Assembly (NCBI GenBank): GCA_023512415.1
Contig: JAILZQ010000001.1
Coordinates: forward strand, 20,008-84,007
DNA: 64,000 nt
Direction: 5' to 3'
DNA from: Geminicoccaceae bacterium
GTDB taxonomy: Bacteria > Pseudomonadota > Alphaproteobacteria > Geminicoccales > Geminicoccaceae
The notes below the pieces were generated by a model, which was not told the DNA's origin, made no database searches, and was given only the letters and a program-made list of their open reading frames with translations. Made by a program: the position numbers and the translations under genes. Of the stretch, positions 8,437 to 42,277 are shown piece after piece. Every line of letters begins with the position of its first letter. The first letter of the stretch is position 1.

Positions 8437-8532
8437 AAGGAGCCAGCGGCCCCACCTGCGTCGACCGGCGAAGCGACAGGAGCGGCAGCCGAGCCCGCTC
8501 GACCGCCGCCTCCGCCGCCCGAGCCGCCTCCG

Positions 8533-8721: not shown

Positions 8722-8728
8722 GCGGGGG

Positions 8729-8765
8729 ACGGGCGTCGGTTCGTGACCGACGCCCGTTCTTCCCT
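8729..8765 (+). terminator. Intrinsic terminator-like hairpin downstream of fae
   Basis: Perfect 12-bp stem ACGGGCGTCGGT (8729-8740) / ACCGACGCCCGT (8746-8757), 5-nt loop, then TCTTCCCTC. Confidence 0.6.
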
Positions 8766-8789
8766 CGCCGATCGGAAGGTGGTGGCCGA

Positions 8790-11315: not shown

Positions 11316-11398
11316 GGGAGCGAACCCTCGGGGTTCCTTGGCGACGGCTCCCTAACCCCGTTAAGACGACCCGCGCAACGCACGGGGGAGCGAGGCTC

Positions 11399-15416: not shown

Positions 15417-15426
15417 AAGAGCTCGA

Positions 15427-15786: not shown

Positions 15787-16010
15787 GGGCTCCTCTCCCT
15801 CGGTCGGTTCGAATGGTGCTCCTCGACGCGATGCCCGATCGACGGGCTCGTGTCGATCCGCCACGGGACCGGCTCGACGCGGGGCCGGGCACGAACGGCA
15901 GCGTGCGGGCTCCGGGGAGACCGGATGTGCCCGCCCGACACCGCCCGGGTGAGGTTCGGGTCACGTGCGGGCGAAGCTCCGGCCGTCCCGGCCGAGCGGT
16001 GTGCGAGCGA

Positions 16011-28267: not shown

Positions 28268-28580
28268 AATCCGTGGCATTTCCGCGCGCCGGCCTTGGCA
28301 GACTCGCCTGCACTCGGACGAGGGAATAACCATAACGAGAACTGCGATCGCTTGTTCCCGAGCCCCCGACCTCCCTCGGAGGGAGGTGACAACGCCTGCC
28401 GCTGCTCGACCCACGCACAGGAGCCACACAGGTACCACGCGGAGAGACGTGATCATCCATAACGGATCCCGTGACAACACCAAAATGCGCAGCGTAGGCA
28501 ACGCCACCTCGCCCTGCAGTCGAAGCCCCATCGAATCTCCGCTCGGGTCGGCGAGGTCGAACCGTCCGATCCCGAAAGAA

Positions 28581-29213
28581 TCACCGCGCAACGCGTTGAT
28601 CCCCGGATTCGCCCGAAAAAGTGACGTTTTCCGTGATGCGGACGCGGATGAATCCACCGCCGTGCGCGGTAACGAAACGTGCGGCCGAGACGATGGCAAC
28701 AGTATCGTTAGGCCCTGCCGCATCGGGGTATAGATTGTAAATATGTAAGACTCGTTCCATCCGAAACGTAAGGTTGTAGATCCCGTCGCGGGCATGCCTG
28801 TCTTGTACAAGATGCGGAACCGTCACCCCGCCTGACAGCGGAATCGGCGTGCAAACTGGGATGGTCGCTAGCACGACCTTTCTCCCTCGACTCCAATAGT
28901 GGAAATCAACACGAGGTACGACCGCACGACATTGCGGCCTTGAGATAGCGCAGACGAGGCCGGCAGAGATCGCGCATCCGACGAAGCGACTGTCACCGGT
29001 ACGGATGGCGCGTCCCGCTGCCCAGGCGAGGAGGATGAGGAACGTATGCGTGAAGGCTTCCGTGGCGAGTTGACGTGGAAAGACGAGTGACAGGGGAAGG
29101 AACAAGTGAACAATAGCGACCGCCAGAGCCAGGGTCGGCCAGAGATCGAGCTTTCCTCCGATCCCGACGAGGACGAGCGTGGTGCGTATCGCACAGGTCG
29201 ATTGCAAACCCAC
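28581..29213 (-). CDS. Hypothetical ORF in the low-G+C patch, possibly a disrupted gene
   Basis: 210-aa ORF with a hydrophobic N-terminal half. It overlaps ORF 28190-28810 in another frame, where the text continues plausibly (FRANPGINALRGDSFGIG...), suggesting a frameshifted remnant. No family recognised. Confidence 0.2.
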   Translation of the reverse strand: MGLQSTCAIRTTLVLVGIGGKLDLWPTLALAVAIVHLFLPLSLVFPRQLATEAFTHTFLILLAWAAGRAIRTGDSRFVGCAISAGLVCAISRPQCRAVVPRVDFHYWSRGRKVVLATIPVCTPIPLSGGVTVPHLVQDRHARDGIYNLTFRMERVLHIYNLYPDAAGPNDTVAIVSAARFVTAHGGGFIRVRITENVTFSGESGDQRVAR

Positions 29214-29749
29214 GACGAGCGATTGTCAGCCGAATAAGAGTAATGCACCATGGATCGTATAATCACCGGAGGCCCACGTCGCGCCATGCGGTCCGGAGTA
29301 CCCGAGTCTGCCGCTCCGTCGAGGCGTCAGTGAAAGACCGGGTGGAGGACAATTTCAGGACGGTTTGCGAGGCGCTCGCCTTCGAAAGCGACGGCGATCT
29401 TTTCCTGGGGGATTATGTCTCGGTCTGTGTTTATGAAGGCGGCCGGTGACTGGACGTTGCGGAGCACGAGCGTCCCGTGCGCCAGGGCGAAGAGTACGAG
29501 CATTGCGGCGAGTGCTCGAAGATCGAAGCGGCGAGAATGAGATGCGGTGCTTCCATGGTCCTGTGGTGGGCGATCGGCGGAAGTTTGTGAGAGTCCGGAC
29601 ACTGATGCCTTCCGTGGGTCCGTGGAATCGACATTCGTGCCAAAGCTGATGGTTTCATTTTGTCGAGGGGCTTGTGATCCGGGACGCGTATACCGAGGGG
29701 AGTCCGTCGGAGCATAGCGAAGAGGAAAACGGGGTGTTGCGGAAGATCC

Positions 29750-32023
29750 TCAGTTCAAGTAATATTTTTGTGATTTCTTGTAATATCCGGTCTTGTCCGC
29801 ATAGCCGTAGCGGGCATGTTTGTCGAGGTCGACCCGGGTCAGCACCACTCCTTTGAGAGGGGCACCGAGCTCCTGGAGAGCCGCGAGCTCGTCCTGGACG
29901 AGCGAGGCCGGAGTCTTGTTCCATTGCACCGCATAGACGACCTGGTCGACCAACGGTGCCAGGATCCGAGCGTCGGTGACACTCGTGACCGGCGCCGTGT
30001 CGAGGATCACGAGATCGTAGCCGATCCGGCAGCGGGCCAGGAACTCGCGCATCCGCTCGCTCGCCAGGAGTGCGATCGGGTTGACCGTCTGACCCTTGAC
30101 CGGAAGGAAGTGCAGGCCGGTTTCCTCGTCGACCTGGATCGCCTCCTCGAGCGAGCATTCCTCGCGGAGCACCTCGAGGATGCCGTTCGGCAGCTGCCAG
30201 CCGAGATTGCGATGGACCGAAGGATGCCGGAGATCGAGATCGACGAGCAGGACCTTCTTGCCCGAGCGGGCGGCGAAGGTGCCCAAGGACACGACGAGCG
30301 TGGTCTTGCCTTCCTCGGGTAGGCTCGAGGTGACCAGGACGACACCGCCGCCACCCGGCCGTGCCGGTGTCGCCACGAGGGCGACGAACACCGCACCGAT
30401 CGCCTCCGCGTAGAGGGAGAGCGGCTTCTCGAGCAGATAATGGTGGGGTTTGTGACGCCGCCTTCCGGGGATCTCGGGGACCAGGCTCAACATCGGCAGT
30501 CCAGTGAGCCGCTCGACCTCGCGCGCGCTCCTGAGTCCTTTGCCCAGGCTCTCGAGCAGGAAAGCGAGCGCGGAAGAGATCAACAGCGAGCCGGTGAAGC
30601 CGACCAGGAGGTAGACCTTGGGCCCGAACGAGCTGGGCGCGAGCGGCGGTGTGGCCGGGCTCACGATCCGCGCGTCCGGTTCGACCAGTTGGGTCTCCTC
30701 ACGGGTCTCTTTGGAACGCTGCAGCACCGACAAATAGAGCTGACGCGCGGCCTCGGCCTGTCGCTCGAGCTCCTTGAGCTTGACCTCGGCCTGACGATCC
30801 CGGGCGGAGCGGCCCTTGACCCCCGAGAGCTGGCTCTCGAGCGTCGCCACACGCGCCTGGACCACCCGGACGTCGTTCTCAAGCTGGGTGGCGAGCCGAT
30901 CGATCTCGGCCCGCACCTTGGCCTGAAGGTTGGCGCGGTCGCGCTCGAGCTGGACCATCCGCGGATGGCGCGGTCCGAACTGGGTGACGAGCTCCGCTTC
31001 TTGGCGGGCGAGCTCCGCTTCTTGGGCGCGCAGGTTGACGATCACCGGCGAAGCGGCGATGTCGCTGATCGCGTCGAGGCCACGGCCGCTCGCTCGGAGC
31101 TCGCGCACCAAGCGCAGCTTGGCTTGTCGTTCGGCCATCTCGCCGCGCGCCACGATCAATTCACGATTGAGTTCGCTAAGCTCCTGCTCGCCGAGGGTGA
31201 CGCCCTGGGCGTCGAGCAGGCCCTGCTCGGCGCGGAAGTTCGCGACCGCCCGCTCCGCCTTCTCGACCTCCGCACGCAGGCTCTCCAGGCGCTCCTCCAG
31301 AAAGGCGGAAGCCCGACCCGTGGCGCCGAGCTTGCTGCGCCGTTGACCGTCGACGTAGACCCCGGCCAAGTGGTTGGCGATCTGCGCGGCCTTGGCCGGA
31401 TCCTCGGCGCTGACCTCGAGGTTGATCAGGTAGGACACGCCGTCGTTGAGGACCCGCACGCGCTCGGCGAGGGCCGCGGCGACGAGATCCTCGACCGGTC
31501 GGTCCGGGACCTCCGCCTCGCGCGGCCAGGAGGCCGGCTCGGCCGCAACCCCGATCGCCACGAGCCAGTTGCGCGGCACGAGGCTCAATGCCCGCTCGAT
31601 CAGGAACCGTGGCTCGAGTCGCAGCCAGCCCGGCTGCTCCGTCTGCAGGAGCGGGTTGAACTCGGGATCGTGGACGAGCCCGAGCTCTTCGACGGTGCGG
31701 CGGAGATTGGCGTGCGCCGTGATCACCCCCATCTCGGTGGCGACGATCTTTTCGTCGACCGGCAGCCGGCCGACCACTTTCTCGATGTTCAACACACGAT
31801 CCTCGCGCGGATCGACGACGATCAGCGCGCTCGCCGTGTAGAGCGGTACGCGCTGCTTGCCGTACACCCAACCGATCGTCGCACCGACCAGGCTGATCAG
31901 CAGGATCAACCACTTGCGTCGCCAGAGAACGGCAAAGAAGGAGACCACGTCCACCGAGGCATTGTCGAGCGTCGATGGATGGGTCGACGGAACGTCGCCC
32001 TTGACTGTGGTCACGTCTCGCAT
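29750..32023 (-). CDS. wzc: Polysaccharide co-polymerase / tyrosine autokinase (Wzc/ExoP/GumC-type, PCP-2a)
   Basis: About 757 aa from ATG 32023 (track ORF runs to 32089). Wzz-like N-terminus with a TM helix, long coiled-coil region, second TM helix. P-loop VVLVTSSLPEEGKTTL...LLVDLDLRHPS and a C-terminal Tyr cluster YGYADKTGYYKKSQKYY. Confidence 0.85.
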   Translation of the reverse strand: MRDVTTVKGDVPSTHPSTLDNASVDVVSFFAVLWRRKWLILLISLVGATIGWVYGKQRVPLYTASALIVVDPREDRVLNIEKVVGRLPVDEKIVATEMGVITAHANLRRTVEELGLVHDPEFNPLLQTEQPGWLRLEPRFLIERALSLVPRNWLVAIGVAAEPASWPREAEVPDRPVEDLVAAALAERVRVLNDGVSYLINLEVSAEDPAKAAQIANHLAGVYVDGQRRSKLGATGRASAFLEERLESLRAEVEKAERAVANFRAEQGLLDAQGVTLGEQELSELNRELIVARGEMAERQAKLRLVRELRASGRGLDAISDIAASPVIVNLRAQEAELARQEAELVTQFGPRHPRMVQLERDRANLQAKVRAEIDRLATQLENDVRVVQARVATLESQLSGVKGRSARDRQAEVKLKELERQAEAARQLYLSVLQRSKETREETQLVEPDARIVSPATPPLAPSSFGPKVYLLVGFTGSLLISSALAFLLESLGKGLRSAREVERLTGLPMLSLVPEIPGRRRHKPHHYLLEKPLSLYAEAIGAVFVALVATPARPGGGGVVLVTSSLPEEGKTTLVVSLGTFAARSGKKVLLVDLDLRHPSVHRNLGWQLPNGILEVLREECSLEEAIQVDEETGLHFLPVKGQTVNPIALLASERMREFLARCRIGYDLVILDTAPVTSVTDARILAPLVDQVVYAVQWNKTPASLVQDELAALQELGAPLKGVVLTRVDLDKHARYGYADKTGYYKKSQKYYLN

Positions 32024-32416
32024 CGATTGCGACTCGCTGGGCTCTGCCTCGGCGCGAAACCCTATATGCACCTTCCCGGCCCGGAGCAAGGGAGCCCGGT
32101 CGACAAGCGACTCGGACCTTACCTCGGTGCGTCGGACGGTTCCGCCCGGGGCCGGGATGCGCTTCGGTCCCCCGGTCGGCCTTCACCCGACCGGCCGTCG
32201 CGAAAGTCGCCGAACCCGGCGGGCGACTTCCGACGCGATCGCAGCCGGCTGCCCGTCGCATTCGGGAGAGCTCCGGACCGACACGCTCGGCCCACCGGGC
32301 GAGCTCCGCCCACCGTGCGCGTCTGCCGGATGCCGACCTCGGAGGCTCTCACCCGAAACGACGGTTCGGCCCCGTTCGTGGCCAGCTCGTTCACCCCGCC
32401 CCATCGAACCACGTCC

Positions 32417-33928
32417 TCAGCGGCTCGCCCGAGGGGCAGGATCGATGGAGGCCGCAGCGGACGGACCGTCCTCACGACGCCGCCAGACGCGCCATCCGAG
32501 CTGGTCGTACACCAACTGCCAGCCCGGACGCCCGCGCTCCCAGAGATCGGGGAAGGTTCGGTTCGAGCGGTCGCGTTCGGCTCCCGGACGTCGCGGATCG
32601 GGAACCGCGATTTGTCGGACGGTCGGCCGGCGCGCGATCAGCTGCTCGAGAAACAGCGGATCGGGCGGGAGAACGAGGCGATCGGCACGGCCGAGCGCCG
32701 CCACCACCGGCATCCCGAGCCGATCGTCGAGGAGTGTGGCCGGACCGTCGGCGAGGAACGCGGCCAGCGCACGCTCACCCGGATGCGGCTCGGGGAGGGG
32801 ACGATGGAGAAGGGCCGTTCGCCACCGGACGATCTCGCCCTCGTCGGAGCGGGCCACCCACACCCACGCGCCCGCCACCGCCACGAACAACAGGCCGAGC
32901 GCGATCGCTCGCCGCGCGCCGGTACGACATTCGGCCAACACCGAGACGACCGGGGCGACGGCGAGGAACAAGAATTGGAGCGGGTGCCCGGAACAGCCGA
33001 GGGCACGCGCCGTGGCGAACCCCGCCACGGGAATCGCGCACGATCCCACGAGCACGCCGGCGAGGCGAAGGGAAGCCCCCGGTCGAAAGAGGCACGACCC
33101 GAGGACGGGCGCACTCACGAGCAAGAGGGCCGATCCCGCCCCGATGGCCCCGAGGAAGCGTTCGCCGTCGGGTCCGAGCCACGATCCGGCTTCGGCGGGG
33201 ACGAGGTCGCAGACTTCGGATCCGAGTGCCTCGAGGGCGGCCGCCCAATCGCCGGTCGAGGCCCAACCGAGCCAGCTCGAAAGCGCGAGCATCCCACCAA
33301 CCGGCACGCCGAGGACGAGCAGAAGCCCGCTCGGTGCTTCGCGGAGCATCTTGGCGGGCACGCTGCCGAGAACGAGGGGCAGGAGTGCGGGCGCACAATA
33401 GACGAAACGCGGATCGATCCACGACCAACAGGCGATCACGAGTGACAAGGATATCGCTCGACGCGCCGTCCTCTCCTCGGCCAATTGCCGTATCGAAGCC
33501 GTCACGACGGCGAACGCCGCGAGGGCCAAGATATCGGGTCCCGTCCGCGACAGAGCCCACAGAGTGAAAGGGTGGACGACGAGGAGAGCGATCGCCCCGA
33601 TCGCCGATCCCGCGTTCCACCCCGTCGACCGCAACCGCTCGTACCCTTTTCCCAAGAGAACGCCTCCGACACCCACCGCGAGTACCGGGAGTGCGGCGAG
33701 CGTCGTCGGTCCGCCGAGCATTTCGAGAAGGGCACCCATCTGGAGCCACGGCTTCGGCTCGACCAGGGCGAGGCCTTCCTGCACGAACCCCGGCACGTCC
33801 CGGGCCATCACCGCCGTTGCCCGTAACGCCACGAGCTGCGGATCGACCCAACCTCCGGCTACGAGCCACGAGCCCGACGCGGCCGTGAAGAGGGCGCCGA
33901 GCGCCGCTGCGGCCGAGCTCCGAATCAC
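32417..33928 (-). CDS. Polytopic membrane protein with C-terminal soluble domain (GT-C-like?), third gene of the synthase operon
   Basis: 503 aa from GTG 33928, which overlaps the GT2 stop (GTGA). At least 10 hydrophobic segments, then a ~130-aa Arg/Pro-rich soluble tail. No specific family recognised. Confidence 0.5.
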   Translation of the reverse strand: MIRSSAAAALGALFTAASGSWLVAGGWVDPQLVALRATAVMARDVPGFVQEGLALVEPKPWLQMGALLEMLGGPTTLAALPVLAVGVGGVLLGKGYERLRSTGWNAGSAIGAIALLVVHPFTLWALSRTGPDILALAAFAVVTASIRQLAEERTARRAISLSLVIACWSWIDPRFVYCAPALLPLVLGSVPAKMLREAPSGLLLVLGVPVGGMLALSSWLGWASTGDWAAALEALGSEVCDLVPAEAGSWLGPDGERFLGAIGAGSALLLVSAPVLGSCLFRPGASLRLAGVLVGSCAIPVAGFATARALGCSGHPLQFLFLAVAPVVSVLAECRTGARRAIALGLLFVAVAGAWVWVARSDEGEIVRWRTALLHRPLPEPHPGERALAAFLADGPATLLDDRLGMPVVAALGRADRLVLPPDPLFLEQLIARRPTVRQIAVPDPRRPGAERDRSNRTFPDLWERGRPGWQLVYDQLGWRVWRRREDGPSAAASIDPAPRASR

Positions 33929-35835
33929 GCGGTCGCTCCGAACTTCGCCGCCGCGATTTCCGCCGCGGTGGTCTTGCTGATCCCGTGGCGGGTCTTCTCC
34001 CAATGGAACGGACATCGCACGAGCTGGATCACCGCCTTCCAACCGGCGATCGACATCAAGATCCAATACAACGGTACGGTCAGCGCCCAGACCGTCAGGT
34101 CGAACCGTTCGCGTTTGACGGGCGCGATCGCCGAAAGATAGATCAGGATCGTGTTACCCAGGATCAACGCGAGGATCGACGGGTACATCAGCCACGGCGG
34201 GAAGATCGTTTCGAACGACGTCGATCCGGTCGTGATCCAGGTGAGGAACGTCACCCACAGAAGGGGATTGATCAGCGCCGCGGCCACGGTTCCTCCCACG
34301 AACAGATGGAACGCCAAAAATCCCTTTGGTCCTACGATCTTGGCGAACCGCACGGGTTTCCGCATGTGGACGAGCCACGTCTGCATGTAACCCTTGAGCC
34401 AGCGGGACCTCTGCCGGATCCAATTCCCGATGTGACAATTCGCTTCTTCGAAGGTGGTCGAGTCGATCACGCCGACCCGATAACCTTTTTGCGCCAGACG
34501 GATGCCGAGATCCGCATCCTCCGTCACGTTGAACGGATCCCAACCGTGCAGTTCGCGCAGGACGGACGTCTTGAAGTGATTCGAGGTACCGCCGAGCGGA
34601 ATCGGCATCCCGAACCTGTCGAGAGACGGAAGCATGAGGTCGAACCAGAGACTGTAATCGAGCGTGAACATCCGCGTCAGCCAGTTTTCCTTGTCATTGT
34701 AAAAATTCAATCGCGCCTGAAGACACACCGTGTTCGAGGGCGATTTACGGAACGAGACGACGGCTTTCTTCAGTTGATCCGGCTCCGGTTTGTCTTCTGC
34801 ATCGTAGATCACGAGATACTCGCCTCGGGCGAGGCGGAGAGCGTAGTTGCACGCTTTCGGTTTGGTGCGAGGATGAGACGGCGGCACGAGAACGATTTCG
34901 AAAATGCCCTCGAGGCCGAGCGCCTTGGCCGCCGCGATGGTCTCGTGGTCGTCGGCTTCGAGGACCAGTTTCACGTCGAGCTTCGCCAGCGGATAATCCA
35001 ATTTGCGGAGTGCGGCGGCGAGGATCGGAAGAACCTCGGGTTCTTTGTACATCGGGACGAGAACCGAATATGTCGGGAGCTCTTCCTCCCGTAGAGCATC
35101 GAGTTCGCCTCGATCCACCGTGGTATCGACGCCGGGCAGGACCGCACCGGCCGTGGCGAGGAACGCTTTGAACGCGACGCTCGCGAGGAACGCCGCGAGC
35201 AGGATGCCGTTGAGGAAGAGGATCGTCTGCAGCGGCGCGACCGCCAGGCCGAGCAGAACGGCGCTCACGACCGCCCAACCGGCGACGAGCTGGGCCGAGG
35301 TGAAGACCGTGCGAGCCGAGCAGTCCGGATCGTGCGCGGCGAGGTCCTCGATCGCGCTGCGCGTGAGCTCGCTCGCGAAACATCGTTGGAAGGTGGCGAG
35401 CAGATCGAACGTGCTCGTCACCGCGACGACAGCCGGGGTCGTCGGGTGCCGAAGGGCCAGGCGGGCAAGCAGGGCTTGCGGCTCGGTCGTCGCCCAAACC
35501 GTCCGACCTCGAATCCTCCGCCAAGGAACCGCTTGCCAGGCGACGTACGCGTCGAGTTCGTTCGGATCGAGGAGATCCGGATCGACCGGAAATCGCCGCA
35601 AGTCGAGAAAGGGCAAACCGAGTTGCCTTGCCAAGATGCGGTAGAGGTCGATCGGACGCAAGAAGCCCAGGGCGACGAGCGCTCGACCCAAGGGAACACG
35701 CCACCGCCGCGCGTAGGCGAGCGCTTCGTCGAGCTCGGACCGTTCGACGAGCCCGGCCTCGAGAAGTTCCGTACCGAGGAGACGGGGAACCGCCTCGTTC
35801 GCCGATCCGCCGGCAGGGATCGAAGCGGCGGACAC
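33925..35835 (-). CDS. Processive family-2 glycosyltransferase (polysaccharide synthase) with N-terminal T2SS-E-N/MshEN-like domain
   Basis: 636 aa. GT2 core: YSVLVPMYKEPEV...VLEADD...VIYDAEDKP...TEDADLG...QRSRWLKG (the QxxRW processivity motif). TM helices lie before and after the core. The N-terminal 80 aa resemble the GSPII_E N-terminal domain. Confidence 0.85.
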   Translation of the reverse strand: MSAASIPAGGSANEAVPRLLGTELLEAGLVERSELDEALAYARRWRVPLGRALVALGFLRPIDLYRILARQLGLPFLDLRRFPVDPDLLDPNELDAYVAWQAVPWRRIRGRTVWATTEPQALLARLALRHPTTPAVVAVTSTFDLLATFQRCFASELTRSAIEDLAAHDPDCSARTVFTSAQLVAGWAVVSAVLLGLAVAPLQTILFLNGILLAAFLASVAFKAFLATAGAVLPGVDTTVDRGELDALREEELPTYSVLVPMYKEPEVLPILAAALRKLDYPLAKLDVKLVLEADDHETIAAAKALGLEGIFEIVLVPPSHPRTKPKACNYALRLARGEYLVIYDAEDKPEPDQLKKAVVSFRKSPSNTVCLQARLNFYNDKENWLTRMFTLDYSLWFDLMLPSLDRFGMPIPLGGTSNHFKTSVLRELHGWDPFNVTEDADLGIRLAQKGYRVGVIDSTTFEEANCHIGNWIRQRSRWLKGYMQTWLVHMRKPVRFAKIVGPKGFLAFHLFVGGTVAAALINPLLWVTFLTWITTGSTSFETIFPPWLMYPSILALILGNTILIYLSAIAPVKRERFDLTVWALTVPLYWILMSIAGWKAVIQLVRCPFHWEKTRHGISKTTAAEIAAAKFGATA

Positions 35836-35836
35836 G

Positions 35837-37915
35837 TCAGGCTCTCCGGCGGAGAACCACGACCAAGCACGCGGTGAGCGCCGCCCAGAAGGCGAGGATC
35901 AGGCCCCACCGCCACGGTGCCAATCGATCGAACCAGGAGATCGCTTCGGGGTATGCGACACGGATCACCGTCTCGCGGGTCGTTCGCAAAGCGATGCGCG
36001 TGCCGGATCGGTCCCCGACGACGAGGTCCTCCCGATCGAGCCGGTCCCCGGGCCAAGATGGTAGCTCGGGTTCGAGCCCGGCGAGCTGGAGACCGGGCTG
36101 CTCGCCGAGACGAACGAGTTGGGCCACGGCGATGTTCGTCCCCGGTGCGATTTCGAGAAGCGGCCCGCTCGCGCGACCGACCAGAGCGACGCGGCCTCGG
36201 TCGAGTCGCAAGGGAGCGACGAGCTCCGGGCGGGCCACCCCACCCACGAGTAGGAACGGTCTTTCCGGTCGCAACGGATCGTCGCCGGCGATCGGGATGA
36301 CACGACCCGGTGTCCCCGGACGGAAGAGGTGGCGACCGATGCCCACGAGGGTCGTGAGCAGGTTCGTCGGACGGTCGAGCCGATCCCGCTCGACCAGGAG
36401 AGGCGTTTCTTCGTCGAGCAGGGCTGCGAGCTCGGCGAACGTGCGAGGGTGCCGCGGAGCCGCGCCGAGGATCAGGTACGAGCTCGCGAGCAATTGGGCC
36501 GGGAGCTGCGTCGGTCGAGAGGTACACGGATCGGCTTCGGCCTGGCGGACGAGCTCGACGCGCAGCTCCGGAGCGAGGCGAACGTCGCGCTCCGGGAGGT
36601 TCAACCGCAAACGGTGCGGTCCGGGACCGTCCGGCAACGGACCCGTGTGCAAGAGCTCTTCGTCGAGCCAAACCGCAACCGAAACCGGCCGTCCGCCGGA
36701 GCCCACAGGGGCCACCACATCCAGAACCACGCCGACCGGAACCCGGCCGGCCGGCAACCGGACGAGGGGTAGACCGAAGCGCCAACCTCCCCGCTCGCCG
36801 ATCCACCGCGTTCGCAGCTCCACCCCGAGCTCCCCGAGCGGCACGGTCTCGACCTCCGGCTCGGCGTGCGATCCCGAGGAGACCAGGTTCGTGTCCGTTC
36901 CGGCCGCGAGCGAGACGAGGCCGGTGCGAACCAACCGATCCAGCGCCGCACCGGCTCGCGGGTGAACGAACAAGACCGATGCTCGCCCCGTTCGAACGAG
37001 AGACAGATCGTTCGTTCCACGCGGAAAAAGGGGCTCTTCACGATCGCCGACCCACGCTCGTTCTTTCATGTGAAAAGCGACGATTTCGGGATCGCCGATC
37101 ACGACGTGGGGTGGTTTCTGCGCGACGGCATGCTTTCCGAACGACCGCCGATCGGCTCCTTCCACCTGGTCGGCAACGGGGAGGAGTCGGCCGAATTCGC
37201 CGGCGACGAGCGGCGGCGAGCCTTCGAGCTCGCGGTACAGGATCTCACGGCCGGACCGGGCGAGCGCGAGACCGACGAGCAGTGCAGTATGGAAAACGTC
37301 CGCTTCACCTCGGCCCGAAGCGACCGCGATTTCTACGGTCCTCGGCAGCGTTTCCCAAAAATTCCGGATCTCGTCGATTCGGCGCGTGTCGACCACGAGT
37401 TCGAGACCACTCCGGGGCAGGATCCGCACGAAGCCCCCGGCCGTCCGATCGTCCACGCAACGATCGTCCGCCAGACTCCCACGCAGTTCGAACTCGACCC
37501 GGGCGAAAGGCTCGCGCAGGTCGCCGGGCTCGAGCGGCAGGACGACCTCGCTTCCCGCCCAGCGCAACAGATCGAGCGCGAGGACACCCCGGTCCTTGAC
37601 CCGAACTTCGAGCACCGCCCGCTGCCACGTCGGCAATTGGACATCGAGGAGAAGGCGAAGGCGACCCGAATCGGGACGAGACGCAGCCAGGGTCGGGAAA
37701 TGCACACTGCGCGTGTCGACGGTCCCTCGCAGCTCGAGCCCCTGCTCGAACCCCAGCCGAGCGAGGTCGAGTTCGACCGTTTCCCGTTCGGCTTTCGCCC
37801 GCAAAGCGGACTGTGCCTGGACGCCGCGATCCCCTCCCACGAGAGAACCGAGCAAGAGCGCGAGCCCGAGCCGCACGAGACCGATCCGAGCGCGCATCGA
37901 TCGTCGAAACGTCAC
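35837..37915 (-). CDS. BcsB-like periplasmic synthase partner (signal peptide, C-terminal TM anchor)
   Basis: 692 aa. Signal peptide MRARIGLVRLGLALLLGSLVGG..VQAQS, a large beta-rich body and a C-terminal WGLILAFWAALTACLVVVL-RRRA anchor. Its stop is 1 nt from the GT2 start. The BcsB assignment rests on topology plus weak sequence impression only. Confidence 0.5.
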   Translation of the reverse strand: MTFRRSMRARIGLVRLGLALLLGSLVGGDRGVQAQSALRAKAERETVELDLARLGFEQGLELRGTVDTRSVHFPTLAASRPDSGRLRLLLDVQLPTWQRAVLEVRVKDRGVLALDLLRWAGSEVVLPLEPGDLREPFARVEFELRGSLADDRCVDDRTAGGFVRILPRSGLELVVDTRRIDEIRNFWETLPRTVEIAVASGRGEADVFHTALLVGLALARSGREILYRELEGSPPLVAGEFGRLLPVADQVEGADRRSFGKHAVAQKPPHVVIGDPEIVAFHMKERAWVGDREEPLFPRGTNDLSLVRTGRASVLFVHPRAGAALDRLVRTGLVSLAAGTDTNLVSSGSHAEPEVETVPLGELGVELRTRWIGERGGWRFGLPLVRLPAGRVPVGVVLDVVAPVGSGGRPVSVAVWLDEELLHTGPLPDGPGPHRLRLNLPERDVRLAPELRVELVRQAEADPCTSRPTQLPAQLLASSYLILGAAPRHPRTFAELAALLDEETPLLVERDRLDRPTNLLTTLVGIGRHLFRPGTPGRVIPIAGDDPLRPERPFLLVGGVARPELVAPLRLDRGRVALVGRASGPLLEIAPGTNIAVAQLVRLGEQPGLQLAGLEPELPSWPGDRLDREDLVVGDRSGTRIALRTTRETVIRVAYPEAISWFDRLAPWRWGLILAFWAALTACLVVVLRRRA

Positions 37916-38020
37916 GGCCGAACGTTCCTTTCGCCTTCGCGCCCTTCTTGGAGAAAGAACCTTACCAGCGCGTTAACGCTCGCGGAGAGCCCCTGGTCGG
38001 ATTATTGGTCTTTATTCCTC

Positions 38021-38308
38021 GGGATTTGGTCGCGCTCGGCCGGTCGTGCCGGCCCCGGGGATCGGCACGCACCCGCCCGGTCGGGATCGAACGCGGCACC
38101 CGACGATCCCCCGGGAGCGGGTCGCGATCCTCCGGGACTTGGTCGCGGCCGGGTTCGGGACTTGGTCGCGCCGGCCGATCGTCCCTCGGGAGATGGTCGC
38201 GATCCTCCGGGAGATGGTCGCGGTCGAGGCCGATTCGTCCTCCGGGAGATGGTCGCGCACGGCCGCCGATTCGGGACTTGGTCGCGCGGGATTCGGGATT
38301 TGGTCGCG
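38021..38308 (+). repeat. Iteron array: nine direct copies of GGGA-NN-TGGTCGCG
   Basis: Copies start at 38021, 38113 (variant GGGAGCGGGTCGCG), 38134, 38157, 38188, 38209, 38244, 38273 and 38295. Spacing is mostly 21-23 or 29-35 nt. A degenerate copy lies near 37999. Confidence 0.85.
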
Positions 38309-38310
38309 TC

Positions 38311-38350
38311 TCTATAAAGGAATCAAAAAGAATCTTGCAAAATAAGAAAG
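38311..38350. other. AT-rich block (DNA-unwinding-element candidate) adjoining the iterons
   Basis: TCTATAAAGGAATCAAAAAGAATCTTGCAAAATAAGAAAG has 10/40 G+C by hand count, against about 70% for the surrounding sequence. Confidence 0.6.
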
Positions 38351-38360
38351 CGCGTGCCGC

Positions 38361-38375
38361 CGCGACCAAATCCCG
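38361..38375. promoter_or_regulatory. Inverted iteron copy upstream of repA (autoregulatory operator candidate)
   Basis: CGCGACCAAATCCCG is the reverse complement of CGGGATTTGGTCGCG. It lies between the AT-rich block and the rep start. Confidence 0.5.
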
Positions 38376-38440
38376 AATCGACAAACCGGTTCCGATGCTG
38401 GTATCGGAAGCGAGCCGACGGTCGATCACGGCAGGGCACG

Positions 38441-39403
38441 ATGGCTGCCGAGCACGAACTGATCATGCGCGAAGGTCTGGACGCGGCGCTGCGTCGGGCC
38501 AGCAACGCACGCGAGCGGGCCCAACTCCGGCTCGCCGCCGACATCCTGGTTCAGGAGGCGGAGAACCCCGCCGCCACCACCCACCTCCACTCGATCCTCT
38601 GCACGATCTACCTGCCGCATCGGCGGACCGAGCCGGATCTCGCCTGGCAACGCTCGAACGGCGAGGGCGCCACCCTCATGATCCAACCGACCAAGGACGA
38701 GCAGGGCCGCTATTACGGCGTTCCCTATGGTGCCACCGGGCGGCTCATGATGATCTACCTGCAGAACGAGGCTTACCGGAACCGCTCGCGGCAAGTCGAA
38801 CTCGGCCGGTCGATGCACGCCTGGCTGCGAGCCATGGGCGTCGATTCGTCGGGCAAGGGATACCGCGCCGCCCGCGAGCAGGCGCTGCGGATCGAACGCT
38901 CGCTCGTCACCGTCGCCTATGTCGGTCCGAACGGCAAGGAGCGGTGGCAGGACACGATCATCCGCGGCTCGTTCAACCTCCTGCCACCGGACGAGAGCGG
39001 CGGCCGCCAGCAGGAGTTGTTCCCGCAACTGATCCAGCTCTCGGAAAGCTTCTACGAGGCCTTGATCCGCCATCCGGCGGTGCTCTTCGAGCCGGCGATC
39101 AAGGCTTTGGCCGGCAAGAGCTTGGCCCTCGACGTCTATCTCTGGCTCGCCTATCGGCTGCACGCCCTCGAGCGGCCGACCCGGATCGGCTGGAAGAGCC
39201 TGCACCAGGCCTTCGGGCCGAACTACGACCGGGAGCGCGACTTCCGCGCCAAGTTCAAGGAGGCCCTCAAAGAGGCCCTCCTCGTCTATCCCCAGGCGAT
39301 CGTCGAGCTCGTCGAAGACGGCGTGCACCTCTCCCCCTCGGCCCCGCCGGCGCCACCGCGGAGCGTCCATTACCTGGACATGCGCCGGCTCGCCCACCGT
39401 TGA
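38441..39403 (+). CDS. repA: Plasmid-type replication initiator protein (RepA family)
   Basis: 320 aa from ATG 38441 (track ORF starts at GTG 38354). LHSILCTIYLPHRR...WQRSNGEGATLMIQP...GVPYGATGRLMMIYLQNEAYRNRSRQVELGRSMHAWLRAMG matches my memory of plasmid-encoded RepA initiators. It is immediately preceded by iterons. Confidence 0.8.
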   Translation: MAAEHELIMREGLDAALRRASNARERAQLRLAADILVQEAENPAATTHLHSILCTIYLPHRRTEPDLAWQRSNGEGATLMIQPTKDEQGRYYGVPYGATGRLMMIYLQNEAYRNRSRQVELGRSMHAWLRAMGVDSSGKGYRAAREQALRIERSLVTVAYVGPNGKERWQDTIIRGSFNLLPPDESGGRQQELFPQLIQLSESFYEALIRHPAVLFEPAIKALAGKSLALDVYLWLAYRLHALERPTRIGWKSLHQAFGPNYDRERDFRAKFKEALKEALLVYPQAIVELVEDGVHLSPSAPPAPPRSVHYLDMRRLAHR

Positions 39404-39429
39404 AGGACGGTTCGAGGAAAAGATCCTTC

Positions 39430-39443
39430 GGGAGATGGTCGCG
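39430..39443 (+). repeat. Isolated iteron copy downstream of repA, overlapping the bphO start codon
   Basis: GGGAGATGGTCGCG is identical to the copies at 38188, 38209 and 38244. Its internal ATG (39435) is the predicted bphO start. Confidence 0.6.
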
Positions 39444-40136
39444 CCCACGGGATCGCCGCGAGCCCCTCGCTCGGGGCTCGCGGATGCCCTTCGAGAGGGT
39501 ACTCGTGAGCTGCATCGACGCGCCGAGCGGACCGGGGTGATCGCCGAGCTGCTCGCCGGCCGGGTCCGTCCCACCGCTTATCTTCTGTTCGCCTTCAACC
39601 TCTTGCCGGTCTACGCCGCCCTCGAAGCTGCCCTGCTCGACCAGGCCCATCTGCCGGCGCTCGGAGCACTCTTCCGTCCCGAACTCGCGCGGAGCCGGCC
39701 GCTCGCCCGGGACGTCGCGGTTCTCGCCGAGCGCTCACCGGCCACGCCGCTGCGTCTGCTCGCGGAAAGCGTGACCCATCGCCGGCGGATCGAGACGATC
39801 GCCCGGACCCTTCCGGAGCGGCTCCTCGCCCACGCCTATGTCCGCTATCTGGGCGATCTGAGCGGCGGGCAGGTTCTCCGTCGGCTCCTCGCGCGGACCC
39901 CCGGCATCGGGCCCGAGGCGGTGCGGTTCTACGAGTTCCCGGATCTCGACGATCTGCCCCGCGCGAAGGCCGCCTATCGGCGGGCGATCGACGAGGCGGG
40001 AGCGCATCTGCTCGATCCGGCCGGGGTGATCGAGGAAGCGCGCGAGGCCTTCCAGCTCACCATCGCCCTCGCCCGGGCGGTGGACGCGGCCTCACCGGAG
40101 CCTCAGGCCGGGTCCCGGCCGCCCTCGCGCGTGTGA
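39435..40136 (+). CDS. bphO: Heme oxygenase (biliverdin-producing, phytochrome-associated)
   Basis: 233 aa. LADALREGTRELHRRAERTG...AHAYVRYLGDLSGGQVL is the heme-oxygenase signature. It lies adjacent to bphP. Confidence 0.8.
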   Translation: MVAPTGSPRAPRSGLADALREGTRELHRRAERTGVIAELLAGRVRPTAYLLFAFNLLPVYAALEAALLDQAHLPALGALFRPELARSRPLARDVAVLAERSPATPLRLLAESVTHRRRIETIARTLPERLLAHAYVRYLGDLSGGQVLRRLLARTPGIGPEAVRFYEFPDLDDLPRAKAAYRRAIDEAGAHLLDPAGVIEEAREAFQLTIALARAVDAASPEPQAGSRPPSRV

Positions 40137-42277
40137 GCGACGATCTGCTCGAGCAGGGCGGTTGCCCGGCCGAGCGAGGCGCGCACGCTCTCGAGCATGT
40201 CGGAGACCCGGGCGAGGTCGGCGCCGTCGGTGATCTCGAGCGCCGCGAGCTGGGCGTTGCCGACGATCGCCTGGAGGAGCCGGCGGAACAGGAGATCGGC
40301 CTCGCTCTGGAGGCGGCTCGCGACGAGCCGATGGCGCTCGAGGATGTCGGCCTGCAGACGGTGGCGTGCCGCCTGGGCGGTCCGCTCGCCGCTCAGGTCC
40401 GAGAACATGAGGACGAAGCCCAAGAGCCGTCCGGGTGGGACGAGGACCGGATCGGCGCGGACCGAGAGCAAGAGCGGTTCGCCGCCGAGCCGCGGGAGCT
40501 GGATCTCGGCCCGCCAGGTCCGCCGGTCCTCGACGAGTTCGCGCAAGCCCAGGCGCGCCGCGTCGGGGTCGGCCAATCGGGCCGGTAACTCGTCGAGCCG
40601 GCGGGGCGGCTGTTGGTCGCCGCCGAAGAGGGCGTGCAGGCCGCGATTGGCCATCAAGATCCGGCCCTGCGCGTCGGCGATCAGCACCGCCTGCTCGGCC
40701 GTGTCGACCTGACGGCCGATCTGGTCGAGCTGATCTTGGGCGATCAACAGGCGGACGGCACGGAATTGGAGGACCAGATCGCGCAGCGTGTCGCCGATCA
40801 GCCGGGCCGCGGCGAGGTCGGCCGGGCTCCAGGGATCGGCGGTGCCCTGCACGAGCTGGTGCCATTTGGCGAACGAGCGCCGCGGCGAGAGATCCTCGGG
40901 GCTGTCGCCCACCTCGACCGGCTTGAAGGGATTGCCACCCCAGGTGACCGTTCGGACCCGTTCCGGGCGGAACCACAGCAACCACTCGCCCGGCAGCGCC
41001 GAGACGCTCACCGCGAGCAGGCCGCTCGCGCTCGCCCGCAAGGGCTCGAAGGCGGGCTCGTCCAGCCCCAAGGACGCGGTCGCGACGACTCCCTCGGAAC
41101 GCCGGCGGTCGAGCCAGGCGCCGATCGCGCGCAGCTCCGCGGTGCCCGGCACCTCGCCCACGCTCGACACTTGGCCGTCGAGCAGGAGTGCCGCACCCGT
41201 CGCGCCGACCGGCTGGAGAAGCGGGGAAGCACCTTCGAACAGCGCCGAGCGCCAATCGCCTTCCCGGGCGATCGCCTCGTGCATCCGCTGCTCGAGCCGG
41301 CGGACCGAGAGCTCGGCTTGCGCTTGGAGGAAGCTCTCGAGCGCGGCGATTCGGGTCGCCACCGTCTCGGCCAGGAGCTCGCAGACGGCCCGGACTTCGT
41401 AAGCGACCCGCCTCGGCTCGTAATGATGGCAGGCGATCAACCCCCAGAGCCGGCCGCCGACCACGAGCGAGGCCACGAGCGTGGCCGCCACGCCCATGTT
41501 CTTGAGGTAGCGGATGTGGATCGGCGAGATGCTGCGCAGGAAGCAGAGCGACATGTCGAGGTCGCGACCGGTCAGCGGCGACAGGCGCGGCTCGATCGGC
41601 ACCCGCTCGGCGTCGACGTCGACCAGCACCCGGATCCGGTTGCGCTCGTAGAGCCGGCGGGCGATCTGCGGGATGTCCGAGGCGGGGTAGCGGTTGCCGA
41701 GATAGGGGTCGAGACCGGGCTCGCGGCGCTCGGCGAACACCTCACCGTGGCCTTCGGCGTCGAACCGGTAGACCATCACCCGATCGTAGCCGGTGAGGTC
41801 CTTGAAGATCCGGGTGGTTTCCTCGGCCAGGCTCTTGAGCGAGGTGCAGGCGAGGATGGCGGTCGTCGCCGTCTCGACGTGGTGGGCGAGGTCGACGGGC
41901 GGGCCGGGCCGCTCGAACTCGAGCACGAGCCCGGCCTCGGGTGGACGATGCAGGACGACGTCGAGCGGCCGGCCGTCGATCCACACCGGCCGCCGCAGCA
42001 CGACCGGCAGCCGATCGAGCGGCTGGTCGAGCCGAGCGCGGACCTGCTCGGCCAGATCGGCGGAGAGCGCCGCGAGCGAGCGGCCCGGGAGCGGCCCCTC
42101 GAGGCCGAGGAAACCGGCGGCGTTGGCACTCGCCTGGAGGACGAGCAGGTCGGGCTCGCGGACCACGAGCAACGCGCCGTGCGGTTGGATCGAGCCCGCG
42201 AGATGGATCGGCTCGCGCTCGCAGTTCGAAAGGTCGGCCTCGCCGAAAGCCGGGGCGAGCGGAGCCGCACCGGTCAC
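40103..42277 (-). CDS. bphP: Bacteriophytochrome, kinase-less (PAS-GAF-PHY + PAS/PAC + short helical output; RpBphP1-like)
   Basis: About 724 aa from GTG 42277 (track ORF runs to 42439 and overlaps ppsR). ADLSNCEREPIHLAGSIQPHG contains the biliverdin Cys. GAF/PHY motifs present (YRFD..GHGEV, ASDIPQIARRLY, RSISPIHIRYLKNMGV). The C-terminus shows no H-box and no N/G boxes. Confidence 0.9.
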   Translation of the reverse strand: MTGAAPLAPAFGEADLSNCEREPIHLAGSIQPHGALLVVREPDLLVLQASANAAGFLGLEGPLPGRSLAALSADLAEQVRARLDQPLDRLPVVLRRPVWIDGRPLDVVLHRPPEAGLVLEFERPGPPVDLAHHVETATTAILACTSLKSLAEETTRIFKDLTGYDRVMVYRFDAEGHGEVFAERREPGLDPYLGNRYPASDIPQIARRLYERNRIRVLVDVDAERVPIEPRLSPLTGRDLDMSLCFLRSISPIHIRYLKNMGVAATLVASLVVGGRLWGLIACHHYEPRRVAYEVRAVCELLAETVATRIAALESFLQAQAELSVRRLEQRMHEAIAREGDWRSALFEGASPLLQPVGATGAALLLDGQVSSVGEVPGTAELRAIGAWLDRRRSEGVVATASLGLDEPAFEPLRASASGLLAVSVSALPGEWLLWFRPERVRTVTWGGNPFKPVEVGDSPEDLSPRRSFAKWHQLVQGTADPWSPADLAAARLIGDTLRDLVLQFRAVRLLIAQDQLDQIGRQVDTAEQAVLIADAQGRILMANRGLHALFGGDQQPPRRLDELPARLADPDAARLGLRELVEDRRTWRAEIQLPRLGGEPLLLSVRADPVLVPPGRLLGFVLMFSDLSGERTAQAARHRLQADILERHRLVASRLQSEADLLFRRLLQAIVGNAQLAALEITDGADLARVSDMLESVRASLGRATALLEQIVAHTREGGRDPA

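Follow-up and report, generated by a model that had tools for sequence, protein, structure and literature searches.

A conserved plasmid-style replication origin beside photosynthesis genes in a Geminicoccaceae bacterium

Iterons, AT-rich block and repA in the window

We analysed a window of 64 kb (the whole stretch of DNA, 64,000 nucleotides) from a Geminicoccaceae bacterium and found in it an array of direct repeats (iterons), an AT-rich block, an inverted repeat copy and the gene repA, lying one after the other and followed by bphO (Table 1). We detected 11 matches to the iteron core GGGANNTGGTCGCG at one mismatch or less in the 64 kb, all of them inside 38021-39443, against 1.41 expected from shuffled sequences; the shuffle maximum was 5, and 0 out of 100 shuffles reached 11. 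The nine direct copies upstream of repA start exactly where an earlier, sequence-only reading of this DNA had placed them, including the copy at 38113, which is a variant with one mismatch (GGGAGCGGGTCGCG). The start-to-start spacings of these nine copies were 92, 21, 23, 31, 21, 35, 29 and 22 nt, corresponding after the first gap to about two or three helical turns, that is, to the rough helical phase of an iteron origin. A further degenerate copy that had been suggested near 37999 was not conserved, the homology with related loci beginning only at about 38011. We also considered a CRISPR array and rejected it: the layout is unlike that of CRISPR, and the spacers between most of the copies are only 7–21 nt long.

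Table 1. Coordinates of the origin features and neighbouring genes in the window
Feature	Position	Strand	Description
PTK/Wzz gene	29750-32089		Set apart from the origin by the three-gene operon only in this window
Three-gene operon	32417-37915	-	549 aa of unassigned function; GT2 with MshEN domain; weakly BcsB-like 692 aa; context, outside the replicon module
Iteron array	38021-38308	+	Nine direct copies; core GGGANNTGGTCGCG, extended form approximately TYCSGGGANNTGGTCGCG
Direct iteron starts	38021, 38113, 38134, 38157, 38188, 38209, 38244, 38273, 38295	+
AT-rich block	38309-38350	.	10/40 G+C; presumed DNA-unwinding element
Inverted iteron	38360-38383	-	Core 38361-38374, in a block of ~24 nt (CGCGACCAAATCCCGAATCGACA); 80 nt upstream of the repA ATG
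repA	38441-39403	+	320-aa replication initiator, RepA_C family (PF04796), tandem winged-helix fold; ATG at 38441, stop at 39401-39403
Downstream direct iteron (eleventh copy)	39430-39443	+	27 nt past the repA stop; overlaps the annotatable bphO ATG at 39435
bphO (heme oxygenase)	39435-40136	+	PF01126, 158.8 bits; first photosynthesis-cluster gene after repA

The 40-mer with the lowest G+C content upstream of the repA ORF was found at 38309-38348 (10/40, compared with ~70% around it); the sequence-only reading had described a 40-nt AT-rich block adjoining the array, and we reproduced its composition at this position. Within the block are two GANTC sites and the words TCAAAA and CAAAATA, both of which are conserved. 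The single inverted copy of that reading was recovered as well: over 19 nt it is 100% complementary to the last direct iteron, and we presume that it serves as operator for RepA autorepression. The element had further been placed directly before bphO, whose start codon indeed falls within the eleventh copy. Position 39443, where this copy ends, is also the end coordinate given in the sequence-only reading, although the copy itself is absent from its list of repeats.

Other origin signals were searched for in the same region. A consensus scan of the origin recovered no sigma-70-like promoter or terminator and no IHF consensus, and no DnaA box was detected in 37900-38460 (neither TTATCCACA at up to two mismatches nor TGATCCCCA at up to one). 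DnaA boxes are common in iteron origins, though not universal. The Rfam search of 37000-40500 returned no RNA family, and there was no tRNA in the window. The cumulative GC skew has its minimum near 39-40 kb, but we rejected it as an origin mark, since the skew tracks gene orientation throughout the window.

On the upstream side, the nearest gene (35837-37915, minus strand) matched BcsB weakly (22.6 bits, cut-off 21). From the start of this gene to the first iteron there are ~105 nt, in agreement with the ~100 bp that had been estimated between the BcsB-like operon and the element. We found neither parAB nor relaxase, integrase or other genes of a plasmid backbone anywhere in the 64 kb.

The RepA protein and its relatives on known replicons

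The Pfam search assigned RepA to PF04796 (RepA_C) with E = 3.3e-20 and 73.5 bits (cut-off 26), residues 94-244 aligning to profile positions 1-168 of 181; a plasmid initiator family had been expected for this ORF. RepA_C was the only family to pass its threshold: RPA (PF10134) scored 14.4 bits, under its cut-off, Rep_3 and TrfA gave no Pfam match at E <=1, and the NCBIfam search returned no family. The sequence-only reading had assigned the element to the class of pPS10, pSC101 and RK2, an assignment that stands for the conserved layout and for the similar class of fold and mechanism but not for the protein family, which is RepA_C instead of Rep_3 or TrfA. The two RepA-like motifs that it had pointed out hold the family-invariant residues L58, P59, G93, P95, G97, R101 and L107. 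Homologues annotated as 'replication protein RepA' were present on 1084 PLSDB plasmid records of 55 kb to ~2 Mb, 658 of which cover at least 80% of the query. From a total of 332 RepA homologues, 120 were listed, and all of these except one fragment carry PF04796.

A PDB search by sequence with a profile of 46 sequences gave nothing significant, and thus a fold comparison was needed. The AF2 model of RepA, predicted with high confidence (pLDDT 85.8, pTM 0.86), had its best Foldseek matches in the PDB among solved initiators, namely RctB domains 2-3, RepE54 and the Rep-DUE ssDNA complex 8ac8 (probability 1.00, TM 0.42-0.58). The modelled tandem winged-helix core is like those of RepE of mini-F and RctB of Vibrio cholerae chromosome 2 (8ac8, RepE54, 5tbf, 5ubf), which would place RepA in the same mechanistic class of iteron-binding initiators, although RepE and RctB differ from it in identity (10-13%), Pfam family and backbone position (rmsd 7-8 Å).

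Among known plasmids, the RepA proteins of Rhodospirillales RepA_C megaplasmids and chromids were 38-43% identical to that of the window. The circular plasmid pAB510e of Azospirillum sp. B510 (NC_013859.1, 537 kb) and a Roseomonas mucosa plasmid (NZ_CP025192.1) belong to the same Pfam family. In pAB510e, where repA lies at record position 1039 and its product is 40% identical to RepA of the window, we recovered the iteron-plasmid layout of the sequence-only reading: an upstream array of ~9 direct iterons, inverted copies ahead of repA and two more copies immediately behind it. The iteron core of pAB510e (...TGGTGACGC) resembles that of the window (...TGGTCGCG), and the 5' half of the iteron differs. 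The Rhodospirillales RepA_C plasmids also differ from the window in their protein identity (<45%) and in that PLSDB contains no member of the window's subfamily; in the window's lineage, moreover, the photosynthesis cluster would part repA from parAB.

The Salmonella island SGI1 offers a second comparison, with a RepA_C-domain initiator beside GC-rich 17-bp iterons and AT-rich stretches; deletion showed that its Rep (S003) and the adjacent iteron oriV are required for replication (Huguet et al. 2020, PMC7433901). SGI1 is, however, an integrated mobilisable island, with its oriV (4 iterons and a DnaA box) placed downstream of a rep gene that a helper plasmid induces, whereas the window has 9 upstream iterons, no DnaA box and no integrase, and parAB are found on the backbone in its relatives.

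Conservation of the origin and its backbone in related loci

The origin layout recurred in ~15 related loci (numbered with the prefix L), mostly of Geminicoccaceae; the close relatives are all draft or MAG contigs of up to 395 kb (L001, 74.9 kb; L056, 92 kb; L050, 148 kb; L041, 362 kb; L037, 395 kb). The order of direct iterons, AT-rich block, inverted copy and rep gene, as originally read from the window, is conserved position for position in these relatives. Their arrays comprise 4-9 direct copies, whose distances from the repA ATG match (only two are seen in L012, whose contig stops at that point), and the AT-rich block directly follows the last iteron in the nine compared loci, with 9-14/40 G+C. 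Most relatives have the inverted copy at -80 to -85; in L012, L029 and L046 it sits farther upstream, at -140, and in L037 we detected none. The downstream iteron is kept at +987 to +1003 from the repA ATG in 8 of the 9 compared loci, and it is also present in L049, L053 and L055-L058, regardless of the gene that comes after repA. Alignment of six loci showed divergent spacers between conserved elements, namely the iteron cores, the AT-rich words and the inverted copy; of all non-coding blocks, the one around the inverted copy is the most highly conserved.

The repA gene is likewise well preserved. Among the loci examined, its ORF departed from the intact form only in L025 and L048, which lack the stop codon, and in L054, with a called product of 398 aa. 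Judged from substitution rates (dN/dS of 0.07-0.08 at dS of 0.5-0.8), repA is under strong purifying selection. Loci that share only 58-84% identity in their BphO, BphP and PTK proteins have RepA proteins that are 92-97.5% identical. L056 has an intact repA with 97.5% identity, next to which bphO and bphP contain stops, frameshifts and deletions, by which both are recognised as pseudogenes. The G+C content at codon position 3 of repA (0.84-0.86) is like that of the neighbouring genes. This equality with the neighbours, together with a backbone kept across several species-level genomes, could be part of a chromid signature.

The RepA subfamily (>=70% identity) was confined to Geminicoccaceae-like genomes. 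No close RepA (>60% identity) was found on a complete or circular PLSDB record, and therefore no relative is proven to be extrachromosomal. Three of the contigs, of each of which we covered 8-21 kb, are near-equal in size (66.0, 66.2 and 66.5 kb), which raised the idea that they might be complete 66-kb plasmids; the module occupies 11-32 kb of the L048 contig.

According to synteny among the relatives, the backbone comprises the EPS locus, the PTK gene, oriV, repA, a variable slot and parA-parB, with purine-catabolism and transport genes coming after parA-parB. The PTK gene directly adjoins the iterons in L001, L019, L025, L048, L049 and L055-L058. The parA-parB pair comes directly after repA in L019, L025, L048 and L049, adjoins repA or lies within ~5 kb of it in L037, L041, L044, L046 and L047, and is found 6.8 kb past it in L055-L058. 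The flanking gene content around the loci is accessory in kind (EPS genes, ABC transporters, purine and sugar catabolism).

The junction repA-bphO-bphP of the window was also present in L001, L018 and L053, and with bphO and bphP as pseudogenes in L056. At the other end of the cluster, L050 and L051 carry orthologous parAB (81% identical) after bchYZ-pufBALMC, and their right flank after parAB is the same as that of L056 (78-81% DNA identity). One assembly contains both L051 and L053, the latter being among the contigs bearing repA-bphO-bphP. No single contig that we saw spans repA, the whole photosynthesis cluster and parAB. We propose that the variable slot would be filled in the window's lineage by the photosynthesis gene cluster, with bphO first; as the cluster would then occupy the slot between repA and parAB, parAB are expected past its far end, outside the window.

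A probable photosynthesis-bearing secondary replicon and its alternatives

The region is a well-conserved plasmid-style origin of a known family, that is, an ordinary kind of replicon. We consider it likely that 38021-39443 is the basic replicon (oriV and repA) of an iteron-controlled RepA_C secondary replicon, a megaplasmid or chromid conserved in a Geminicoccaceae clade. By analogy with the class, RepA monomers would bind the nine direct iterons through their two winged-helix domains, and this binding would bend and open the adjacent AT-rich block, where the host helicase and replisome could be loaded. RepA would also repress its own gene by binding the inverted copy, which lies 80 nt before the repA start, and the copy past the stop codon, together with the array, may allow Rep-mediated pairing ('handcuffing') that limits copy number.

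The comparative evidence, as far as sequences can tell, favours a living replicon: the dN/dS of 0.07, the parAB of the relatives and the intact repA beside decaying neighbours. The origin also suggests that the adjacent photosynthesis cluster sits on a secondary replicon, and the window probably belongs to a photosynthesis-bearing megaplasmid or chromid outside the Roseobacter group. We lean, with some reserve, towards a fuller statement, in which a RepA_C megaplasmid or chromid measuring 200 kb or more carries, in this Geminicoccaceae clade, the whole photosynthesis cluster, the EPS locus and the H4MPT C1 module; the cluster would occupy the slot between repA and parAB and would have been lost repeatedly, with bphO/bphP pseudogenes in one lineage.

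An unlikely alternative is an ancestral integration: the module would belong to a plasmid or genomic island inserted in the main chromosome, where it is kept silent, or conditionally active as in SGI1, and the photosynthesis cluster would be chromosomal. Partition and transfer genes are absent within 25 kb on either side of the module in the window, circularity has been shown for no relative, and the EPS genes, the H4MPT C1 module and the photosynthesis cluster share the codon bias of repA, all of which would agree with integration; SGI1 itself is an integrated element that keeps a working RepA_C/iteron replicon. However, we saw no integrase, att-like repeats or excision genes at the borders of any locus, and the backbone has kept its orthologous parAB. 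Further arguments against an integrated module are that repA (dN/dS 0.07) and each of the iterons have stayed under purifying selection in several species, that genes next door have decayed in L056, and that selection would normally be expected to act against an iteron origin firing constitutively within a chromosome.

Much less probable is the recruitment of a RepA homologue purely as a transcription factor, with the repeats as operators for the divergent EPS operon and for bphO and the photosynthesis genes and with no role in replication. The array does sit in a divergent intergenic region, one iteron copy overlaps the bphO start codon, and iteron initiators are known autorepressors. Nevertheless, the array, the AT-rich block and the inverted copy hold their positions whatever flanks them, with the PTK gene, the GT2 operon or parAB upstream and bphO, parA or bchI downstream, and an AT-rich block by the iterons and a linkage to parAB are features of a replicon, not of an operator. 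A decaying relic or a chance cluster of repeats without present function is hardly credible, given a repeat count that none of the shuffles reached, an ORF that is intact outside L025/L048 and L054, a dN/dS of 0.07, iterons conserved across loci and, in L056, an intact repA beside decayed bphO and bphP.

For the secondary replicon that we favour, the closest precedents are the photosynthesis plasmids and chromids of the Roseobacter group (e.g. those of R. litoralis, NC_015741.1, and S. guttiformis, NC_019364.1), in which a complete cluster is interleaved with a replication and partition module (PMC6052148, PMC6739100). The second of these reports describes most such clusters as 'inserted by' the replication module, and its abstract counts 13 photosynthesis-bearing replicons, all from Roseobacter-clade strains (Liu 2019, PMC6739100). 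Evidence of cluster loss in close relatives is a further likeness (Brinkmann 2018, PMC6052148; PMC6739100). The two cases differ in that the Roseobacter group belongs to another order and family, and in that extrachromosomal status is proven there, while we infer it for the window. The sequence-only reading had restricted plasmid-borne photosynthesis clusters to a few Roseobacter-group strains, which is mostly right, though not entirely: the bchB-bearing plasmids of PLSDB, only 10 in number, also include those of Novosphingobium, Candidatus Thiodictyon and Roseinatronobacter. We know of no prior link between the RepA_C replicon type and photosynthesis, and the literature that we searched held nothing relevant on plasmid-borne photosynthesis in Geminicoccus or Geminicoccaceae.

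The view that phototrophy spreads and is lost via plasmid transfer rests mainly on photosynthesis clusters located on extrachromosomal replicons, and this evidence comes almost entirely from marine Rhodobacteraceae (PMC6052148, PMC6739100). If our reading is true, the Geminicoccaceae would provide a second, independent plasmid-borne case, on a RepA_C replicon with the cluster between replication and partition genes and with relatives caught losing it, and thus a plasmid-borne route of gain and loss for phototrophy outside the Roseobacter group. One could then test whether the same cause underlies the patchy occurrence of aerobic anoxygenic phototrophy among the Alphaproteobacteria of soils and hot springs. 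Finally, the candidate replicon of ~1.45 kb could serve as the basis of a compact vector for the poorly tractable Geminicoccaceae.

The iteron origin and its RepA

We searched the window for GGGANNTGGTCGCG with at most one mismatch and found 11 matches, all between 38021 and 39443. In 100 dinucleotide-preserving shuffles the mean count was 1.41 and the maximum 5, and 0 out of 100 reached 11. The nine direct copies proposed by the sequence-only reading were all recovered at the same starts, while the degenerate copy that it placed near 37999 is not supported: the related loci show conservation only from ~38011 on. According to the repeat finder, the iteron unit reaches 5' to ~17–20 nt, as TYCSGGGANNTGGTCGCG, and the last direct copy forms a perfect 19-nt inverted repeat with the inverted copy. 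No recognisable DnaA box was detected in the origin.

Features of the window, with the strand and basis of assignment where available
Feature	Position	Strand	Content	Basis
H4MPT-linked C1 (formaldehyde oxidation) module	within 1-16000		MCH, FTR, formylmethanofuran-dehydrogenase-like amidohydrolase, MfnB-like, CitG-like	Pfam
Hsp20				Pfam
EPS locus			sugar transferase, 1707-aa cadherin/Ig adhesin, PTK/Wzz gene (PTK)	Pfam
GT2/BcsB-like operon	32417-37915	-	549-aa unknown; GT2 with MshEN-type domain; 692-aa weakly BcsB-like	Pfam
Direct iterons (n=9)	starts 38021, 38113, 38134, 38157, 38188, 38209, 38244, 38273, 38295	+		pattern match
AT-rich block	38309-38348		10/40 G+C, against ~70% G+C in other DNA	
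Inverted iteron (n=1)	38361-38374	-		pattern match
repA	38441 (ATG)-39403	+	320 aa	Pfam
Downstream direct iteron (n=1)	39430-39443	+		pattern match
Photosynthesis cluster	40100-64000, bphO starting earlier		bphO, bphP, ppsR, tspO, bchG, second PAS-HTH regulator, B12-binding protein, then others	Pfam
Photosynthesis cluster, later genes	listed after B12-binding protein gene		bchF, bchB, bchH, pucC-family gene, puhA, acsF-like gene	Pfam

The repA gene had a third-codon-position G+C of 0.84–0.86, similar to its neighbours. The Pfam search assigned its product to PF04796 (RepA_C, 'Plasmid encoded RepA protein'; 73.5 bits, cut-off 26), as expected from the proposal of a plasmid initiator, and the two motifs first picked out as RepA-like both contained invariant residues in a 46-sequence alignment. 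The protein database held 332 homologues, with identity up to 94% among the 120 listed, and all of those 120 except one fragment contained PF04796. By tblastn, 1084 PLSDB plasmids carried RepA homologues (658 full length), annotated 'replication protein RepA' and all below 60% identity to the window RepA, on replicons of 55 kb to ~2 Mb from hosts including Azospirillum, Acetobacter, Roseomonas, Ralstonia, Xanthomonas and one Geminicoccaceae plasmid. The AlphaFold2 model built from the 46-sequence alignment was confident (pLDDT 85.8, pTM 0.86), and its best solved matches were RctB domains 2–3 (Vibrio chromosome 2 initiator), RepE54 (mini-F) and 8ac8 (Rep-DUE ssDNA complex), with probability 1.00, TM 0.42–0.58 and identity 10–13%; no PDB relative of the family was found at the sequence level. 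A recent preprint counts RepA_C among the winged-helix replication-initiator domains. SGI1, whose Rep is also a RepA_C protein, no longer replicated once rep or the iteron oriV next to it was deleted (PMC7433901).

Spurious long ORFs overlapped repA (575 aa in another + frame and 382 aa antisense; all frames of window 37813–39574). In the public MAG locus L048 an antisense ORF (341-aa minus-strand gene, 8631–9656) was annotated in place of repA, and the protein-database homologue P0029 was named 'pirin' in NCBI; public annotation of this RepA family in high-G+C MAGs is unreliable. In the L025/L048 MAG the repA frame was open to 524 codons with the stop missing, compared with 327 aa in the near-identical L005 and L049 copies; a misassembly or a recent mutation is the probable cause.

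Conservation of the module in other genomes and plasmids

We scanned 185,579 species-representative genomes with two adjacent iterons as query and obtained 36 loci, 8 of which (L001, L005, L012, L018, L019, L025, L026 and L029) had an array-adjacent RepA homologue, 75–95% identical to the window RepA. Six out of these 8 loci were labelled Geminicoccaceae or came from genera grouped with the family in this analysis (Marinimicrococcus, Benzoatithermus), while L019 and L025 bore other taxonomic labels. More RepA members, up to 97.5% identical, came from the protein database. The remaining 28 scan loci were chance or unrelated repeats.

Across the window and the eight RepA-bearing scan loci, the direct iterons lay at about -460 to -146 from the repA ATG (six to ten copies where the upstream reach sufficed, the last two ~22 nt apart), followed immediately 3' by the AT-rich block, by one inverted copy at -80 to -85 (-140 in L012 and L029) and then by repA, with a downstream direct copy at +987 to +1003 in 8 out of the nine. 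Additional loci kept the iteron core and overall layout; the number of copies and the inverted copy varied somewhat. A six-locus alignment showed conservation of the iteron cores, of the AT-rich words TCAAAA and CAAAATA and of the 24-nt block around the inverted copy, against freely varying spacers. The core was constant down to ~70% RepA identity, and the more distant locus L047 had the variant CGGGATGTTGTCG. The circular pAB510e (537 kb), with a 40% identical RepA encoded at the record start and the related core TGAACNTTGGTGACGC, followed the same plan, with ~nine direct copies on the upstream side, inverted ones ahead of repA and another two right behind its stop, as did a Roseomonas plasmid; thus, the layout, downstream copy included, is the normal origin architecture of the family. 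The observation of an iteron origin with repA was confirmed, and its interpretation as a plasmid-type replication origin is supported. The element is a RepA_C iteron replicon, a known kind. Its subfamily (RepA identity of at least 70%, CGGGANNTGGTCGCG iteron) had no representative among PLSDB plasmids, so it is a new member of that kind and not a new kind.

Our comparisons establish the sequence features with their conservation, the family and fold of RepA and the parAB linkage in relatives, and for the mechanism we draw on other members of the class, namely iteron plasmids, RepE, pi, RctB and SGI1. By that analogy, RepA monomers would fill the iterons, which are in phase, and unwind the AT-rich block, RepA dimers would repress repA at the inverted copy, and the copy after the repA stop would, with the array, let Rep-mediated pairing take place and so limit copy number.

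GANTC, the CcrM methylation motif, had 6 sites (window 38232–38379) in the 0.5-kb origin versus 1.5 per kb window-wide. Two of them were kept in 5–6 out of 6 relatives: one, GAATC or GAGTC, falls in the AT-rich block, and the other, GAATC, in the block around the inverted copy. These conserved sites hint, speculatively, at a coupling of the origin to CcrM methylation.

Proposed replicon backbone and position of the photosynthesis cluster

Gene order around the origin in related loci (from the genome scan or protein-database relatives)
Loci	Order and remarks
L019, L025, L048, L049	PTK(-), oriV, repA, parA-parB; two iterons in 0.2-kb repA-parA spacer
L005	left side and near-identical DNA in common with the preceding group; parAB scan covered the other four
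L055-L058	PTK(-), oriV, repA, 6.8 kb (bphO/bphP pseudogenes and unknown ORFs), parA-parB, amidohydrolase, urate oxidase, ABC transporter, XdhC, xanthine dehydrogenase
L001, L018, L053	oriV, repA, bphO, bphP, ppsR, tspO, same as window
L050, L051	bchYZ-pufBALMC, three ORFs, parA-parB, L056-type amidohydrolase-to-xanthine-dehydrogenase flank (78–81% DNA identity to L056)
L047 (RepA 74% identical)	parAB ~5 kb upstream of repA; repA-bchI-bchD-bchO directly (10963-14751)
L037, L041, L044, L046	parAB adjoining repA or within ~3 kb; contigs 60 to 395 kb; accessory metabolic genes around

These orders are most simply read as one conserved backbone in which EPS/PTK, oriV, repA, a cargo slot and parAB follow each other, with the slot filled by the photosynthesis cluster in the window; we infer this because it was pieced together across contigs, no single contig spanning all of it (L051 and L053 come from one assembly). 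In relatives without the cluster, the equivalent of the downstream iteron and a second copy sit in the repA–parA spacer, which places the cargo junction immediately 3' of that iteron. Summing the flanks (38 kb left in the window, ~55–60 kb of cluster, >130 kb right in L050) gives a replicon of at least ~200 kb. Pfam scans detected no parAB in the 64-kb window, which also contained no tRNA.

In L055–L058, repA was intact and 97.5% identical to the window gene, with intact iterons and parAB, and 3' of it lay a decayed bphO-bphP copy (74–79% nucleotide identity to the window; L056 3200–5521) interrupted by a stop in frame and by frameshifts, with 33 residues deleted and the first 128 bphP codons gone. 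No photosynthesis genes were found between repA and parAB in these loci, which together with the pseudogenes is evidence for loss of the cluster there. The cluster would, on the simplest reading of the gene orders, be ancestral at least to the group of the window and L056 and later lost in L056. Selection has kept the replicon module beside decaying neighbours. In comparisons of the window with the five nearest relatives from the genome scan, repA had dS of 0.49–0.78 and dN/dS of 0.07–0.08. RepA is also much more conserved than the proteins encoded around it, with identity of 92–97.5% compared with 62–84% for PTK, 58–60% for BphO, 77–78% for BphP and 73% for PpsR.

An extrachromosomal location of the photosynthesis cluster is probable from these sequence comparisons. 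An integrated plasmid or SGI1-like island is the less likely reading, as no integrase or att features were seen, parAB is retained on the backbone in relatives and purifying selection has acted over the long term. A role of RepA and the repeats in transcription alone fits poorly, because the architecture is the same whichever genes flank it. A relic or chance repeat cluster is contradicted by the shuffles, the dN/dS values, the conserved iterons and the intact repA beside decaying neighbours.

The downstream iteron overlaps the first possible bphO ATG (39435), and RepA bound at this predicted site could affect bphO expression. In L047, the repA-bchI order joins this replicon family to photosynthesis genes in another way. 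The contigs with PTK-oriV-repA(-parAB) in L005, L019 and L025, from different MAGs, had nearly equal lengths (66,001, 66,242 and 66,476 bp), which could be coincidence or reflect complete replicons of like size.

Comparison with known photosynthesis plasmids and other window content

The interest of the element rests on its context, a photosynthesis cluster beside an origin, rather than on its kind. Only 10 PLSDB plasmids carried bchB, none of them from Geminicoccaceae. The sequence-only reading had limited such plasmids to the Roseobacter group, which held for 7 out of the 10 (Sulfitobacter, Roseobacter, Thalassococcus, Tateyamaria) and failed for the other 3 (Novosphingobium, Candidatus Thiodictyon, Roseinatronobacter). 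Published work on extrachromosomal photosynthesis clusters deals with the Roseobacter clade, where replication modules typically sit inserted within the cluster (PMC6739100; PMC6052148). The arrangement in the window is a parallel from another family and on another replicon type, and one of its relatives records cluster loss. We found no literature tying Geminicoccaceae photosynthesis genes to plasmids.

Pfam scans agreed with the reported gene content, which brings together the H4MPT C1 module, the photosynthesis cluster and a plasmid-type origin on one 64-kb stretch. The cluster regulators comprised two PAS-HTH_8 (PpsR-like) proteins, a B12-binding AerR-like protein and a bacteriophytochrome/heme-oxygenase pair. 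The GT2/BcsB-like operon split PTK from the origin only in the window, PTK abutting the iterons in every relative seen, and was partly low in G+C (0.58 at 34–35 kb); thus, it looks recently inserted. Finally, positions 27000–30000 inside the EPS locus, between a UDP-glucose dehydrogenase fragment and PTK, had a G+C of 0.59 versus ~0.70–0.73 and weak codon-position bias. This stretch, where L049 carries a Wzy_C polymerase gene, may have been exchanged as a cassette of the serotype type, and the dehydrogenase ORF (26278–26808) appears truncated (176 aa vs 445 aa in L048).
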